DNA from: Firmicutes bacterium UBA5493
GTDB lineage: Bacteria > Bacillota > Limnochordia > Darwinibacteriales > Darwinibacteriaceae
NCBI GenBank assembly: GCA_002424045.1
Contig: DIPH01000015.1
Location: forward strand, 70,550 to 134,549
DNA: 64,000 nucleotides
Direction: 5' to 3'
Part shown: positions 17,511 to 54,811 of the stretch, one piece after another
How positions within the stretch are numbered: the stretch's first letter is position 1
How the letters are laid out: each line of letters opens with the position of its first letter
The notes under the pieces: model-generated
Told to the model about the DNA's origin: nothing
The model's input: the letters and a program-made list of their open reading frames with translations, nothing else
Databases searched by the model: none
Made by a program: the position numbers and the translations under genes

Positions 17511-18839
17511 TTAGGGCATCTCTGCCCGGCCAATACGGAGTTTGAGTTCTTTATCCATATTAGCAATTGCCTGTACCATTGTTTGCTCACCGGCCACATA
17601 TTTCTCAATCTCAGCACTGATGATGCCGTCAGCTTCATTGTCCTGTGGCGTTACTGTCATGTTAGGTGAAGGATTGAACAGACCATCAGCCTCGGCTTTT
17701 CGGAACGATTGACCGCCGTAGAAAGACGAGGGTTCTTGCCAGAATGGATCCGACAGCACTTCAAGGGAAACTGGGTTGGAGTAGGGACCATTCAGTCTGT
17801 CCATCTCGTTTACCCATGCGTTGCGCTCTTCAGTATTGGTCGAGAAGTCATACCACATATCCAAGAACAGATCCACGTAGGTGTCGTCTCCCTTGTTTAC
17901 TACGCAGAAGTACGTAGAAACAGGGGCACCGCCGGTGCCTACTTCTTCAAAGACAGGCGCACCCATCACTCGCCAATCACCAACAGTGGCTGTCAGGTTC
18001 CTGCGCAAGAATTCATCCCAGAATGCACCGATATAGAATGTAGCAATTTTGCCTTGATCCGTTGCTTCATAAAGTGGCGGCTGCATCATGGTTGTTCTGT
18101 AGAGAAGCCCCTCGCTGTGAAGCTGATCCAAGAATCCAAGGGCCAGCTTTGTACCTTCGTCTTCGCCGATGACCACATTCCCATTTTCATCCCAGATTCT
18201 AGCATTGGCTTGAGGCATCAAACCGCGACGACCCCAGTAACGCCAGGTATAGGTGGTGGGATCAATATAAGATAGATAGACTTCACCATTGCTGCGTTCT
18301 TTTAGGAGACGTCCTGCTTCAAGATATCCGTCAAAGGTGCCCATCATAGCGGGATCTACGTCATACTCTTCGAAAATCGCCGCATTGTAGAATAACACTT
18401 GGGGACGAACAGCGTCAGGCAGAGCCCAAACACGTCCATCAATGGTGGCATCGAGTACTGCACCGTCCACGAACTGATCTGCGATTGGTGTCCAATAATC
18501 AGTCATGTCTAACAGTAATCCAGCATCAACCAAGTTCATGATGCCTACTGCATCAAGCATAATCACATCTGGCATATCTTTGTAAGCGCCAGCGAGATTA
18601 TCCATGGCGATCTTCTGAACGCCAGCGTGCATGGTTTCGATCTGAACTGTCTCAACATCCACATTAGGAGCAAAGCGATGGATGGAAGGTTGGTAGAATA
18701 GTTCCCGGAAATGAGGTTGTCCAGTAGAGTAAATGAGAATCTTTCCATCTGGATAAGTGTCTTGAGCCATCACAGGAAAAACGCTCATAACCAACGAAAC
18801 GACGACAAGCAACACTAAGGACATTGATTTTCTGTACAT
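17511..18839 (-). CDS. Extracellular solute-binding protein, family 1 (sugar ABC transporter substrate-binding protein)
   Basis: 442 aa. Signal peptide cleaved ...PVMA|QD without lipobox. SBP_bac_1-like. Confidence 0.85.
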   Translation of the reverse strand: MYRKSMSLVLLVVVSLVMSVFPVMAQDTYPDGKILIYSTGQPHFRELFYQPSIHRFAPNVDVETVQIETMHAGVQKIAMDNLAGAYKDMPDVIMLDAVGIMNLVDAGLLLDMTDYWTPIADQFVDGAVLDATIDGRVWALPDAVRPQVLFYNAAIFEEYDVDPAMMGTFDGYLEAGRLLKERSNGEVYLSYIDPTTYTWRYWGRRGLMPQANARIWDENGNVVIGEDEGTKLALGFLDQLHSEGLLYRTTMMQPPLYEATDQGKIATFYIGAFWDEFLRRNLTATVGDWRVMGAPVFEEVGTGGAPVSTYFCVVNKGDDTYVDLFLDMWYDFSTNTEERNAWVNEMDRLNGPYSNPVSLEVLSDPFWQEPSSFYGGQSFRKAEADGLFNPSPNMTVTPQDNEADGIISAEIEKYVAGEQTMVQAIANMDKELKLRIGRAEMP

Positions 18840-43535: not shown

Positions 43536-43735
<200 letters not shown>

Positions 43736-43791: not shown

Positions 43792-45063
43792 ATGTTCAAG
43801 AAATCAAAGCTGTCTGTTGTCGTGTTCACGATCGTCACAGGGTTCTTGTTCGCAATGGCCGGCGCCAAAGCGAATGTCACTACCATCAATTACTGGCATT
43901 ACCTCAGTGGAGATAATGCTGCGATCCATGAACAGATGGTGCAGGAGTTTAATGCCCAACATCCCCACATCCAAGTTGAAATGCTCTACACTGGGAACCA
44001 GTTTGTAGCGAGAGACAAACTTCTAGCTTCAGTGGCGGGAAGCGTGACCCCCGATGTGGCCTTAGTGGACCAGTTTTGGCCCCCCCTCATGGTTTCCAGC
44101 GGAGCGCTGGTGCCTCTACGGGATTTTGTAGACCCCGAAGAGTATTTGCAGGACTATAGCCAGGTTTCCAGAGACACTGTAACAGTCCATGGAGAAGCTT
44201 GGACAGTTCCCTTTTCCTTAAGCAACCAGATCCTTCTTTACAATAAAGATAAGTTCAGAGAAGTGGGTCTGGATCCAGAAAAGCCTCCCACAACATGGGA
44301 TGAATTGGTGGAGTACGCCAAAGTTCTTACACGGGACATTGACGGTGACGGACGCATAGATGAATGGGGTGTAAACTTCACAACTAGAGCGAATCTAGGC
44401 TCCATGTATGCTTTTGTAACTTTCTTGTGGCAAGCGGGAGGCGAGCTGTACAGCGAAGACTACAGTGAAGCAACCTTCGACGACGCTACAGCCCGAGACA
44501 CGGTGCAGTTTTGGATTGATCTTGCACATAAGCACCAAGTGCTCTCCCTCTCTCCGCCAGCTGATGGATTTGAGATTGGCCGCATTGCGATGCAGTATTC
44601 AAGCACATCATCCATCGCTGCCACCAAGAACAAAGTGGACTTTGATTTAGGGGTAGCGGCACTACCAGGGAAGAAGAACACAGTTACAGGCGTAGGTGGC
44701 AGCAGTTTGGCCATTTTCAAGACAACGTCTGAGAAACAAGCAGCAGCCTGGGAATTTGTGAATTGGATGTCCAGTGCTGAAAACAATCTGAAGTGGAGTA
44801 TGGCCACGGGGTACATTCCCCTGAGGCTTTCAGTGCGAAAGTCCGCCACCTACCAGCAATACCTGGCAGATGAGCCCCATATGCAAATCGTACTTGAGCA
44901 GTCAGATTACGCAAGGGCCAGACCAAATACTGTAAGCTATGCAGACCTATCCCGCATTTTAGGTGTGGCAGTGGAGGAAGCACTCTACGGCAACACCAAT
45001 CCAGAACCGATTCTCAATCATGCCGTTAGAGAAGCAAACACCTATATTCAAGCCCTGGACTAA
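43792..45063 (+). CDS. Extracellular solute-binding protein, family 1 (CUT1-type ABC substrate-binding protein), orphan
   Basis: 423 aa. Signal peptide ...AMAGAKA|NV without lipobox. SBP_bac_1-like. Ribosome-binding site GGAAGGAG. No permease or ATPase genes adjacent. Confidence 0.85.
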   Translation: MFKKSKLSVVVFTIVTGFLFAMAGAKANVTTINYWHYLSGDNAAIHEQMVQEFNAQHPHIQVEMLYTGNQFVARDKLLASVAGSVTPDVALVDQFWPPLMVSSGALVPLRDFVDPEEYLQDYSQVSRDTVTVHGEAWTVPFSLSNQILLYNKDKFREVGLDPEKPPTTWDELVEYAKVLTRDIDGDGRIDEWGVNFTTRANLGSMYAFVTFLWQAGGELYSEDYSEATFDDATARDTVQFWIDLAHKHQVLSLSPPADGFEIGRIAMQYSSTSSIAATKNKVDFDLGVAALPGKKNTVTGVGGSSLAIFKTTSEKQAAAWEFVNWMSSAENNLKWSMATGYIPLRLSVRKSATYQQYLADEPHMQIVLEQSDYARARPNTVSYADLSRILGVAVEEALYGNTNPEPILNHAVREANTYIQALD

Positions 45064-51268: not shown

Positions 51269-52090
51269 CTACTCCACTTGTCTTCGGATAAACAAAGAAG
51301 CGATCCATACTCCGCAGGCAAACAGACCCAAACAGAGCACTAACTCAAAAGCAGTTCGGGGCCACCCAGGAAACGAAGCCCACAGAGATCCCAACATGAG
51401 GCCTATGATGGCATAAGAAACATGCCCGTACGTCCGTTTGAAAAGCCAGTTCATGGCCTTGGAAACCACGACAATGGCAGGAAGGAAACCCAAAGCCACT
51501 GGAATTAGAACGGTTAAATCGAGTTGCACCACCGCCCTAAGAAGTTCTTCATAAAAACCAAAGGCAATCAGCAGAAACGATGCACTAAGCCCTGGGATAA
51601 CCAAACCTATCCCTAAAACACTCCCTTTCAACGCTGCGCTTAGCACTCCTGAAGTCAAGGTAGACCCTTCCCCAGCAATTCTAGGCAGACCGGTTACCAT
51701 AATCAGTGTGAGTAAACCAACCAGAAGACTTACTAGAAAAGAGAGGCGAAACCCCTTGGCATTGGCCAACTTCACCATGGAAGGAATGCTGGCGATAACC
51801 AGTCCGAAGAAAAAGTATAAAGTGGCCATGGGATGCTGCGCAAATAGGTACTCTAAAATTCTGGCCAGAAAGAGAAGGCACACGGCTGCCCCCATACCAA
51901 GGGGGGCCAAGAACTTGATGTTTTCACGCCAATTCGCAAAGGGCTTGGCAATGGCGGCAATAATGGGTGCATAGAGTCCCAAAACCATGGCTAAAACACC
52001 TCCGCTCACCCCTGGAACCACCATGCCGAAACCAATCACAAAGCCACTCGCAAGCCGATACCAAAAGCTCTGCTCCTTAACCACGCTCAC
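51269..52090 (-). CDS. DUF368-family polytopic membrane protein
   Basis: 273 aa with internal duplication VPGVSGGVLAMVLGLY / IPGLSASFLLIAFGFY. Confidence 0.55.
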   Translation of the reverse strand: MSVVKEQSFWYRLASGFVIGFGMVVPGVSGGVLAMVLGLYAPIIAAIAKPFANWRENIKFLAPLGMGAAVCLLFLARILEYLFAQHPMATLYFFFGLVIASIPSMVKLANAKGFRLSFLVSLLVGLLTLIMVTGLPRIAGEGSTLTSGVLSAALKGSVLGIGLVIPGLSASFLLIAFGFYEELLRAVVQLDLTVLIPVALGFLPAIVVVSKAMNWLFKRTYGHVSYAIIGLMLGSLWASFPGWPRTAFELVLCLGLFACGVWIASLFIRRQVE

Positions 52091-52814
52091 GGACTCCTTT
52101 CAAACCGTCCCGGTTTTTGATTAGGATTCGACGTTGGCCAATTTGCTCGATGAAACCGAGTTCTTGAAATGATGTTAGTTTTCGGCTTAGAGTCTCGCCA
52201 GTCATACCTATCTGCGAGGCCCAGTCTCTCTTGCTCATCTCCAGCTCAATCTCTACATCACCCATGCTCAAATCTAAGAGCGCCTGGGCCAAGCGCCTCT
52301 CTACCGAATGCAGGCTAATGTCCTCGAGAAGCCGTTCGGCCGTTTCCAAACGCTTGCTGAGCTCCTCTAAAATCCTAAAGGCTATACTGGGGTATTTGCC
52401 CATCAACTCTTTTAGAGCGTCGCCGTCAATAACACACATACTACTTTCTTCTAAGGCCTCGGCATAATCGCCCATGGGAGAATGATTGAACAGGGTTAGT
52501 TCGCCCAAAAAATCGCCAGAACGTAGTATACGAATCACCTGCTCTTTGCCTGTATCACTCAGACGATAGATCTTGACTCGCCCAGAGTGGATGACAAATA
52601 GGCTATCTACTTCATCATCCATGGCATAAATCTCTTCTCCTTTTTGAACGACCACTCGACGCGTAATCTGGGCCACCTCCAACATCTCTTCCTCGGTGAG
52701 ACTGTGAAAGATCGGAACAAGAGTTATGCAATTCGACTCCTCATCGTACTCGCAATGGCACTTCATGGGCATCACCTCCCCTTTAAGCATATGTGCGCTA
52801 TAAAAACAATTCAC
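52077..52814 (-). CDS. Crp/Fnr-family transcriptional regulator with N-terminal cysteine cluster
   Basis: cNMP-binding beta-roll (RILRSGDFLGELTLF) plus C-terminal HTH (RDWASQIGMTGETLSRKL). N-terminal C-x-C-x7-C (KCHCEYDEESNC). Start position uncertain. Confidence 0.75.
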   Translation of the reverse strand: MNCFYSAHMLKGEVMPMKCHCEYDEESNCITLVPIFHSLTEEEMLEVAQITRRVVVQKGEEIYAMDDEVDSLFVIHSGRVKIYRLSDTGKEQVIRILRSGDFLGELTLFNHSPMGDYAEALEESSMCVIDGDALKELMGKYPSIAFRILEELSKRLETAERLLEDISLHSVERRLAQALLDLSMGDVEIELEMSKRDWASQIGMTGETLSRKLTSFQELGFIEQIGQRRILIKNRDGLKGVRERG

Positions 52815-52947
52815 CTTTCTCCCCTAGATTCCTGCAGTGAGGGTTACCGAGTTCGCAAGCCTATTTTATTCTACCCCACCTGCATCCAGACCACATCTAG
52901 GATCAAGAATCCCCACGGGAAACTGGGTGCCAGTGGGGACTTTCCGT

Positions 52948-53298
52948 CTACTTGCCAAAGTTTAGAGGATAAACGTTGCCAATAGGAACAGAGAACATAA
53001 AGCCTACGCTAGGATGATCCACGTCACCGAGGACATCCTTCACAGCCTCTACTGTCCGTTCAACTAATTGCTCACTGTCTACAACAGTGAAGATCGTCTT
53101 GTTATAGGGCCGAGCCCCTTCCATGAAGGTCTTCAGGGAACCGAATAAAGGAAAGTCCCTTCCTCTACTACTCACTAGGGCGCTGGCCATCCCTTGGCTG
53201 TCCAAAATCGTAGCTCCCTGCACTCCCACATCTACGAATCGAGCCAGGATTTCATCTAGATAATCTGTTTCATTCAAAACCAGGAACAAAGCATACAT
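52948..53298 (-). CDS. PII-like small signalling protein (DarA/PstA-DUF970- or DUF190-like fold)
   Basis: 116 aa after trimming to MYALFLVL (ribosome-binding site AAAGGAGG, 8-nt spacer). beta-alpha-beta pattern and T-loop-like GS-rich segment parallel B. subtilis DarA. Confidence 0.5.
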   Translation of the reverse strand: MYALFLVLNETDYLDEILARFVDVGVQGATILDSQGMASALVSSRGRDFPLFGSLKTFMEGARPYNKTIFTVVDSEQLVERTVEAVKDVLGDVDHPSVGFMFSVPIGNVYPLNFGK

Positions 53299-53320
53299 AC
53301 TGTCGGCCTCCTTTGATAGT

Positions 53321-54508
53321 CTACCTAATCGTTGACCCCATACCACGGATCTCTCCAGCTTTTTGGATGGCCATTTTGGCAATGTTGGTACCAACAATTT
53401 CGTAGAGCAAGACACTGACCACAATTATAGCAATAACATCCATGCTTATATCCGGCTGATGTTGCAGTACTAGAATCGCTAGCGCGATAGACAATCCGCC
53501 TTGGGGCAGCAGTGCTACGCCCAAGTGTTTTTGCACAGCGGGTTCGGCCTTCACAGCCTTCGAACCGAGCCATGCGCCAAAGATCTTCCCAAAAGCCCTT
53601 GCCAGAAGGTATCCTAGACCTAAGAGAGCGGCCTGGAGAAGAACCCTCAGATCGAAACGGGCACCGGCCAGTGTAAAGAAGAGCAAGTAAATAGGTGGTG
53701 TAAAGTGATTCAGACTAAAGAAGATCCGATTGGAGTTTTGGGTGAGATTTACCAGGACTGCGCCCATCATAATATTGGTCAACAGAGGAGATAAGGTCAA
53801 CACCTTAGCGACAGCGGTAGAAGCCAGGATCATAGCTATCGTAGTCACTAAAAGCTCGTCACTGTCCCCCGCCTTCTGCCCAAAGAATGTCAAGGCTAAT
53901 CCGAAGACGGCTCCCAGCGCCAAGCTGCCAAAAATCTCTATGACGGGTCTGCCCACTGTCTGCCACACACTTACCTCTGCTCCTAGTGCCACCACGCGGG
54001 TGATCGATATGGCGATCCCAAAGAGCAGGACCCCCAACACTCCATCCAGCGCTATGACTGGCAAGAGCGTTCTCGTGACAGGGCCATCAGCGCGATACTG
54101 CCTCATCACCATGATCGTCGCTGCAGGGGCTGTGGCCGCGGCAATGGATGCCATCACCAAACTGAAGGCAAAATCCTGTTTGAATAGGAAATACATGGTT
54201 GCGAAGACAACGAGGATGGTCCCAAAAACTTCCGAAAAAGTGATGACCACAAAGGATTTTCCAAGTTTCTTCATGTCCCTCACCACAAATTCGCTCCCGA
54301 TCTTGAAAGCCACGATAGCCACTGCAATCTCGGCAATGATGCCTAAGGAAGAAAGATCTTGGCTAGAAAGGAGTTTTAGGCATGAAGGACCTAGAATGAT
54401 ACCGGCGATTACAAAGCCAAAGACATTGGACAACTTGAGGGTCTTCGCTAATCTGCCTGCTAAGCATCCAACCAGAACAACAATTGCGAGTTTGAGTAAC
54501 ATGTCCAT
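53321..54508 (-). CDS. Cation:proton antiporter (CPA1/CPA2-type Na+/H+ or K+/H+ exchanger), no RCK domain
   Basis: About 395 aa, 11-12 TM helices with Na_H_Exchanger-like GPSCLKLL..., ALDGVLGVLLFG motifs. Start trimmed to MDMLLKL (ribosome-binding site AAGGGGGTG). Confidence 0.8.
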   Translation of the reverse strand: MDMLLKLAIVVLVGCLAGRLAKTLKLSNVFGFVIAGIILGPSCLKLLSSQDLSSLGIIAEIAVAIVAFKIGSEFVVRDMKKLGKSFVVITFSEVFGTILVVFATMYFLFKQDFAFSLVMASIAAATAPAATIMVMRQYRADGPVTRTLLPVIALDGVLGVLLFGIAISITRVVALGAEVSVWQTVGRPVIEIFGSLALGAVFGLALTFFGQKAGDSDELLVTTIAMILASTAVAKVLTLSPLLTNIMMGAVLVNLTQNSNRIFFSLNHFTPPIYLLFFTLAGARFDLRVLLQAALLGLGYLLARAFGKIFGAWLGSKAVKAEPAVQKHLGVALLPQGGLSIALAILVLQHQPDISMDVIAIIVVSVLLYEIVGTNIAKMAIQKAGEIRGMGSTIR

Positions 54509-54811
54509 GCACGACACCCCCTTAGACCCAAATATAGCATATTCAGTCTACCCTGTCAAAAAAACTACATGGTTGCCAGACGTCACGAAATGCCTTCTTA
54601 GAAGGGCTTACAGCTTCATGATCACCGATTTTCCCATAGCGGGCATCATTGTAAAGCTGTGTTAAGGCCTTGATGGCTTTCAGGTCAACCTGTTGTCAAC
54701 AACCTTATGATAGTTCCCCCTTTTTTCACGAATCCCTTTAAAGAATCGAAGAGGTAAATTCACTCTAGATGGCGAACTTGATTTGTTGCATCGAAATTCT
54801 GGAGGGACATT

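Follow-up and report, generated by a model that had tools for sequence, protein, structure and literature searches.

Can a cation/proton antiporter (CPA) family transporter that carries no regulatory domain of its own be served by a regulator encoded in the adjoining gene? The question is raised by a 64,000-nucleotide (nt) stretch of DNA from Firmicutes bacterium UBA5493 (GenBank assembly GCA_002424045.1, contig DIPH01000015.1, positions 70,550 to 134,549 of the forward strand; here, the window), in which the gene for a CPA2-family transporter (53321 to 54508, minus strand) is followed, 22 nt after its stop codon, by a gene for a 116-amino-acid (aa) protein (52948 to 53298, minus strand). A preliminary description of the locus, made from the sequence alone, had likened the small protein to the cyclic di-AMP (c-di-AMP) receptor DarA and had suggested, by analogy with SbtA and SbtB, that it is a trans-acting, nucleotide-sensing regulator of the antiporter. 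We found that the small protein has the fold of the PII superfamily, that the transporter is free of RCK domains, and that the two genes adjoin each other at most of the loci examined. The two genes are best explained as an operon, and the PII-like protein would be a regulatory subunit that acts in trans on its cognate transporter by means of its T-loop; for operon and regulation taken jointly, we put the probability at about 0.6.

The small gene and its spacing from the transporter gene

The small gene reads from an ATG at 53298 to a stop codon at 52948-52950, which is included in its coordinates, and encodes 116 aa. The same open reading frame (ORF) is called by public gene callers; no Pfam hit is on record for its product in L096 (GCA_002424175.1, DIQA01000064.1), a public contig of a metagenome-assembled genome (MAG) that has an identical antiporter and the gene order of the window. 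Because the ORF is called publicly and its relatives are conserved, we regard the gene as real. The transporter gene encodes 395 aa from an ATG at 54508 (MDMLLK...) to a TAG stop at 53321-53323. The mechanically derived ORF begins at a GTG (53321 to 54517), and the ATG at 54508 is the likely start since an AAGGGGG ribosome-binding site fits it; a public protein (P0121) is 100% identical to the 395-aa product, and public gene callers use the same start. The intergenic spacer (53299 to 53320, minus strand) is 22 nt long and contains GGAGG at 53307-53311, 8 nt before the ATG of the small gene. The coordinates, protein length, spacer, and strong ribosome-binding site reported in the preliminary description were all correct.

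Conservation of the gene pair

A first protein search returned 329 relatives of the small protein, mostly unnamed or "hypothetical," with a few named "P-II family nitrogen regulator." An exhaustive profile search, run on 1.84 billion cluster representatives (50% identity), returned 1010 clusters at E values of ≤1e-3, of which 443 were at ≤1e-10. Relatives occurred at 344 places when each species was represented by a single genome, and those listed belong to Bacillota (Limnochordia or Darwinibacter-like MAGs, Clostridium, Alkaliphilus, Tissierella, Acetivibrio, Anaerocolumna, and others). The pairing was assessed at the best 80 of these 344 loci. An antiporter homologue adjoined the PII-like gene on the same strand at 73 of the 80, and the order was antiporter first, PII-like gene second in 63 of 66 full-length pairs, with a median spacer of 24 nt (≤50 nt in 57 pairs). 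Among six distant representatives, three (P0255, P0350, and P0389) had a Na_H_Exchanger gene directly downstream of the PII-like gene, with P0255 and P0350 showing 38% and 32% identity, respectively, to the window protein. No antiporter adjoined P0270 or P0300, and the sixth, P0319, is fused to a phosphotransferase system (PTS) EIIA-2 domain and lies on a short contig. One locus (L076) carried two diverged pairs in tandem, each with the PII-like gene first. When the antiporter side was sampled, the PII-like gene was found directly downstream in two of three homologues (P0194 and P0179, not P0232).

Two diverged pairs were present in each of five MAGs. The pair from one clade (clade A) was close to that of the window (PII-like protein, ~90% identity; transporter, ~70%), and the pair from the other (clade B) was more distant (~60% and ~55%, respectively). 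Both members of a pair shared the same nearest relative in four of the five MAGs, and in the fifth the nearest relatives differed within the same clade; genomes with two pairs thus keep each PII-like protein together with its own antiporter. The distance matrices of PII-like proteins and antiporters were correlated (r = 0.58; Mantel P = 0.001), a value to which the shared descent of adjacent genes contributes. Other neighbors of the window pair (a Crp/Fnr-family regulator, a DUF368 gene, and a hexapeptide transferase gene) recurred in just 17 closely related loci of the window clade. The transporter was the sole neighbor conserved across the family, its clades, and both gene orders, and no amtB or glnA homologue lay beside the PII-like gene at any locus whose neighbors were examined. 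Tight spacing on one strand, kept across many genomes, is evidence of the same sort as underlies the SbtA-SbtB analogy.

Fold and family of the 116-aa protein

The PII-superfamily fold of the small protein is secure. The window protein matched the Pfam P-II family (PF00543) over nearly its whole length with 18.9 bits, below the cutoff of 25, and 39 of 40 diverse family members matched it at E values of ≤0.1 (best, 5e-8). The family profile aligned end to end with solved PII proteins (e.g., TT1020 and 2gw8), the best such matches being GlnB-type, and hhalign of the family against a hand-entered sequence of Escherichia coli GlnB gave 88% probability (E = 3e-6). Single-sequence phmmer searches of both proteins of the pair against the PDB returned nothing useful, and profiles were required. 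The AlphaFold2 (AF2) model of the small protein (predicted local distance difference test score [pLDDT], 77.7) has strands at residues 2-8, 30-32, 67-73, and 99-105 and helices at residues 14-24 and 76-90, that is, the beta-alpha-beta-(long loop)-beta-alpha-beta pattern with a ferredoxin-like core. In Foldseek, the top 50 matches of this model were all PII proteins or PotN, with a probability of 1.0. Pfam, family profile, hhalign, AF2, and Foldseek thus agree on the superfamily that had been proposed at the outset.

The model and the alignment place a long loop at the T-loop position and a short one at the B-loop position. The former (residues 33-66, DSQGM...PLFGSLK...RPYN; 53101 to 53202, minus strand) is highly conserved and is the proposed partner-binding element. 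It has ~34 residues versus ~19 in GlnB, which makes it ~15 residues longer, and it has no alignable Y51. Residues D33, S34, Q35, G36, M37, A40, P50, F52, L55, P64, Y65, and N66 are invariant or nearly so in the family, and the recurrent motifs are DSQGM, P-[LF]-F-G-x-L-[KR], and [RHK]-P-Y-N-K-T-I-F. The B-loop-position segment (residues 91-98, GDVDHPSV; 53005 to 53028, minus strand) is followed by G99-F100-M101-F102.

PII subfamilies are not separable by structure alone; sequence profiles place the window protein nearest PF00543. A PF00543 match is precomputed in databases for part of the family, NCBIfam gave no match to the window protein, and neither Pfam nor NCBIfam holds a dedicated model for the family. 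The protein is a member of a divergent, unnamed PII subfamily, and the name "P-II family nitrogen regulator" is probably a misannotation.

The presumed ligand cleft compared with that of GlnB

Several framework residues of the GlnB cleft are invariant in the family: G27-x-T29 of GlnB corresponds to G28-A-T30, G35 to G36, G89 to G99, and F92 to F102. Across 129 representatives with a mean identity of 30%, the near-invariant residues were G28, T30, G36, G99, F102, and P105. An invariant lysine at the start of beta3 (K67) pairs with K58 of GlnB in the HMMER alignment and with K60 in hhalign; K58 and Q39 are contacts for 2-oxoglutarate and Mg in GlnB. The position of GlnB G87 is a glycine in most members and a serine in the window clade, and that of R38 is a serine in the window clade and an arginine in many distant members. 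Residues D88, K90, R101, and Q39 of GlnB are replaced by V, by F, L, or I (F100 in the window protein), by P or G, and by A (A40), respectively, and the position of R103 is variable. The B-loop motif GDGK of GlnB thus reads S/G-V-G-F in the family, and the ATP-phosphate contacts K90, R101, and R103 are missing.

Because the cleft framework (G28, T30, G36, and G99) is conserved, a ligand pocket is probably present in the PII-like family. Binding of Mg-ATP and 2-oxoglutarate in the manner of GlnB appears unlikely. The case for nucleotide sensing is weakened because the equivalents of K90, R101, R103, and Q39 are lost. Of the trans-acting, nucleotide-sensing regulator first suggested, the PII-like trans regulator stands as the best reading of a conserved, tight pair, while the nucleotide-sensing part found no support in those features that could be tested, the phosphate contacts being lost.

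The RCK-less transporter

Na_H_Exchanger (PF00999) was the sole significant Pfam match of the transporter (53321 to 54508, minus strand; E = 5e-29). No Pfam match to TrkA_N, TrkA_C, or RCK was found in its 395 aa, and NCBIfam gave weak, subthreshold matches to CPA2 models and nothing more. Its 120 best database homologues, of ~395 to 442 aa except for one 290-aa partial sequence, likewise had PF00999 alone and no RCK domain. Against the PDB, the family profile matched NapA best (5bz2; E = 2.6e-12), followed by PaNhaP and MjNhaP1. The AF2 model (pLDDT, 82.7) is all-helical, terminates at residue 395 after a conserved C-terminal tail (KAGEI), and shows the elevator-type CPA fold; in Foldseek, it matched NapA with template modeling scores of 0.79 to 0.81, with PaNhaP, NHA2, KefC, and SOS1 next. 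The window transporter is an RCK-less, NapA-like protein of CPA2 fold, and the absence of an RCK or TrkA domain, noted already in the preliminary description, was borne out by Pfam, by the 120 homologues, and by the model.

The ion-binding motif in the window clade

In characterized CPA proteins, the second of two aspartates in transmembrane helix 5 (TM5) is the ion-binding residue. Alignment to NapA, the Na+/H+ antiporter of Thermus thermophilus, showed that the position of its ion-binding pair D156-D157 is taken in the window transporter by D155-G156 (codons at 54041 to 54046, minus strand), such that the first aspartate is kept and the second is a glycine. Among the 120 best homologues, this pair was D-D in 95, D-G in 23, and N-G in 2; N-G was found at loci L002, L004, L006, and L007. 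The window transporter thus lacks the Asp-Asp pair of CPA2 proteins that the wider subfamily has. The TM10 lysine of NapA (K305) corresponds to K308 and is invariant. The PDB includes an Asp156Asn variant of KefC.

The transporters with D-G or N-G form a clade with four further consistent differences (S69 to K, S123 to A, P27 to S, and G342 to A). Their PII partners (loci L001 to L009 and L069 versus the other loci) differ at four positions near the presumed cleft (K/R27 to Q, G38 to A, K/R95 to H, and G97 to S) and keep 83 to 94% identity. Since the changes in transporter and PII-like protein are confined to this single clade, where phylogeny confounds them, they are not readable as independent covariation.

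Proposed regulation of the transporter

A regulator would be needed in trans because neither the transporter nor its 120 best homologues have an RCK domain. We propose that the PII-like protein is a detachable cytoplasmic regulatory subunit that would fill the role of the fused or separate RCK/KTN domains in KefC, KhtTU, and CpaA. The protein is presumably a trimer, as other PII proteins are. Its long, largely hydrophobic T-loop (P50-L-F-G-S-L-K...R63-P-Y-N-K67) would engage the transporter at its cytoplasmic face, depending on a small ligand in the clefts between subunits, and transport would be locked or plugged as a result, as it is in AmtB by GlnK and in SbtA by SbtB. The SbtA-SbtB structure is the nearest template. 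CPA2 proteins are elevator transporters with a cleft comparable to that of SbtA. SbtA, itself an elevator transporter, has a hydrophobic cleft where its core domain meets its gate domain, and SbtB pushes its T-loop in there (PMC8352866). A valve-plug model, with the plug as a one-way valve, has been put forward for SbtB and GlnK (bioRxiv 10.1101/2023.08.10.552651).

Several points weigh against this proposal. The main difficulty is one of stoichiometry: AmtB and SbtA are trimers and match a PII trimer, whereas those CPA relatives with solved structures (NapA, NhaP, KefC, and NHA2) are dimers, and a 3:3 plug is not simply transferable. The residues of canonical PII proteins for ATP phosphates and 2-oxoglutarate are missing, and nucleotide sensing may be absent altogether. 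The T-loop (residues ~33-66) is modeled by AF2 with low confidence, pLDDT falling below 50 at residues 44-53 and 56-62. The substrate of the window transporter is uncertain because the second TM5 aspartate is lost. Some intact members have no adjoining antiporter (L011, L014, L016, L039, L018, L025, L040, P0270, and P0300). Finally, it is from known PII systems that we infer binding to the transporter, contact through the T-loop, dependence on a ligand, and the direction of the effect.

A bolder variant follows from the same data. An unnamed PII subfamily might have replaced RCK domains in a CPA2 clade of anaerobic Bacillota, sitting as a trimer on a dimer and responding to a noncanonical ligand. 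Because the window transporter has lost the ion-binding aspartate and gained a lysine at position 69 while its PII partner is kept at 83 to 94% identity, the window pair is perhaps not a cation/proton antiporter system and could be a PII-gated transporter of another substrate, a channel, or a sensor. We hold this variant as tentative and, as a whole, unlikely.

Alternative explanations

The members without an antiporter bear most directly on a different explanation, in which the PII-like protein acts on another target (e.g., an enzyme, a transcription factor, or a different transporter) and shares no more than an operon with the antiporter, or in which the antiporter is one among several targets. 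Four of the loci (L011, L014, L016, and L039) keep the downstream DUF368 gene, three of them (L014, L016, and L039) also the Crp/Fnr gene, and the transporter is absent there. In Acetivibrio (L018, L025, and L040), no antiporter flanks the PII-like gene, which adjoins a divergent DtxR-like regulator gene and feoB, both recognized by inspection of their sequences, and P0270 (L081, 1080-4906) lies two genes upstream of a V-type ATPase operon. Either the protein can act at a distance or it has further targets. Multiple targets are also on record for canonical PII proteins and SbtB (bioRxiv 10.1101/2023.08.10.552651), and one PII-like protein (P0319; L082, 494-1363) is fused, in 289 aa, to a PTS EIIA-2 (PtsN-like) domain, a single case on a 1.4-kb contig. 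This is the only fusion that looks real, and its partner is not an antiporter. Set against this, the antiporter alone is conserved across clades and gene orders, while the Crp/Fnr and DUF368 synteny is limited to the 17 close loci, and we consider a target other than the antiporter, or in addition to it, distinctly unlikely as the explanation of the pair. Other candidates for natural fusions were set aside: P0247 and P0304 are antiporter fragments with a truncated PII-like part and look like assembly or gene-calling artifacts, and P0259 (PrmC plus PII) may be a read-through call.

A c-di-AMP receptor of the DarA/PstA type, which would couple c-di-AMP to K+/H+ antiport, has the PII superfamily and an occurrence in Firmicutes in common with the window protein. 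The resemblance went no further. DUF970 gave no match at an E value of ≤1 in the window protein and none in 40 family members, sequence profiles place the family nearest PF00543, and DarA is not described as linked to a CPA2 transporter. The loops are those of canonical PII proteins, with a long T-loop and a short B-loop; in PstA/DarA, the lengths are reversed, and c-di-AMP is bound with a short T-loop (PMC6516651). The likeness to DarA that had been suggested was not upheld, and of the domain assignments considered at that time, the P-II family held (by way of 39 of 40 relatives, the window copy being below the cutoff) and DUF970 did not. We regard a c-di-AMP receptor of this type as improbable.

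Still more doubtful is a structural or assembly subunit that binds no ligand, or a CutA-like cation-binding protein, that would serve the stability or function of the transporter and not its regulation. G28, T30, G36, and G99 are nearly invariant across a wide family of 30% mean identity, as is expected of a maintained ligand pocket, and CutA has no long T-loop (PMC6516651). That the protein is an ordinary GlnB/GlnK nitrogen regulator whose position beside a transporter is incidental would suit the names of some database entries, the PF00543 matches precomputed for part of the family, and the GlnB-type proteins among the best-matching solved structures, and is nevertheless highly improbable in view of the score below the Pfam cutoff, the lack of an NCBIfam match, the unconserved K90, R101, R103, and Q39, the longer T-loop with another motif, and a conserved neighbor that is a Na_H_Exchanger gene in place of amtB or glnA.

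Relation to known PII and CPA systems

In our view, both the PII-like subfamily and its class of partner are new. Regulation of a co-encoded membrane transporter is the ancestral role of PII proteins, and the literature yielded three PII-transporter pairs, SbtB-SbtA, GlnK-AmtB, and PII-NrtBCD. Full-text searches, with most subscription journals outside their scope, turned up no account in which a PII or PII-like protein accompanies a CPA antiporter. With GlnK-AmtB and GlnB, the window protein has in common the fold, the order of the loops, and the cleft framework (G27-x-T29, G35, and G89 in GlnB); its conserved lysine at the start of beta3 falls on K58 or K60 of GlnB, according to the alignment. 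SbtB is partnered with SbtA, whereas the partner here is a PF00999 (Na_H_Exchanger/CPA2) protein. SbtA is trimeric and the CPA relatives are dimeric. Many SbtB proteins have a C-terminal CGPxGC redox loop (PMC8352866), whereas the window protein contains no cysteine and is closer to PF00543 by sequence profile.

PotN, encoded in the potABCD operon of lactobacilli (PDB 7o4x) and ranked 14th in Foldseek, is likewise a PII-like protein of Firmicutes that is encoded with a transporter for a substrate other than a nitrogen signal. Its partner is an ABC importer of polyamines, whereas the partner here is a secondary transporter of the CPA2 family. PotN is an ATP/ADP sensor; the window protein, in contrast, lacks the phosphate-binding residues. 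On the transporter side, KefC-KefF, KhtT-KhtU, and CpaA belong to the same superfamily, and KefC was among the structural matches. These systems have cytoplasmic ligand-binding regulators. In RCK/KTN systems, the regulator is of the Rossmann type, while here a separate 116-aa protein of PII fold accompanies an RCK-less transporter. NapA was the best match in both sequence and structure, with K305 equivalent to K308 and D156 to D155; its D157 is Gly156 in the window clade, and the pair is N-G in some relatives. NapA is not known to have a PII partner.

Few signal transducers are as widespread as PII proteins, and the transport systems that they are known to target carry ammonium (AmtB), bicarbonate (SbtA), nitrate (NrtBCD), and polyamines (PotABCD). 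If the proposed regulation holds, the PII paradigm would extend through a CPA2 partner to pH, Na+, and K+ homeostasis, and a mode of regulation would be suggested for many RCK-less CPA2 transporters. The locus also offers a defined pair for structural study of a trimeric regulator on a transporter family whose solved members are dimeric.

Transcription signals and neighboring genes

A strong promoter-like, sigma-70-like site (TTGACA, 17 nt, TATATT, with a TG before the -10 element; 11 of 12 consensus matches) lies at 54531 to 54559 on the minus strand, ~22 nt upstream of the antiporter ATG, and would give a very short 5' untranslated region. A riboswitch or other leader upstream of the transporter was rejected: an Rfam scan with gathering thresholds had no hits in the vicinity of the locus, and there is no room for such an element downstream of the promoter-like site. 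Just 3' of the PII-like stop codon (approximately 52905 to 52938, minus strand), a possible, weak hairpin, UCCCCAC...GUGGGGA followed by UUCUUGAU, may end a two-gene transcript; it folds no better than shuffled sequence (z = -0.29), and a terminator scan did not call it.

The gene for the Crp/Fnr-family regulator (cNMP_binding and HTH_Crp_2 domains; 52077-52814, minus strand) lies ~130 nt downstream of the PII-like gene, and 3' of it are a gene for a DUF368/VCA0040-like (undecaprenyl-phosphate-translocase-like) protein and the hexapeptide transferase gene. The regulator has a Cys-rich N terminus (C-H-C-...-C). It was rejected as a general partner of the PII-like protein, its synteny being restricted to the window clade. 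A search of the window for a second PII-antiporter pair gave one weak match (18441-18518), inside an unrelated 442-aa ORF, which we attribute to chance, and a search for a plasmid origin gave no match.

Some of the other loci have neighbors of their own. In L083 to L085, a distant pair with the PII-like gene first is followed directly by a gene for a GAF-GAF-GGDEF protein. A gene for an MscS-type mechanosensitive channel lies directly upstream of the antiporter-PII pair in L092/L093 (1384-2181), a tentative pointer to osmotic or ion homeostasis as the setting. In an Acholeplasmataceae MAG (L094/L095, 1-1882, minus strand), an antiporter homologue without a PII-like gene lies beside a divergently oriented gene for a DUF1538 membrane protein (492 aa), followed by one for a 221-aa product with a P-II domain, which may be another pair of a PII protein and a membrane protein. 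Elsewhere in the window, a flavin mononucleotide (FMN) riboswitch (RF00050; 121 bits) was found at 43536-43660 on the plus strand, upstream of an ORF at 43792-45063.

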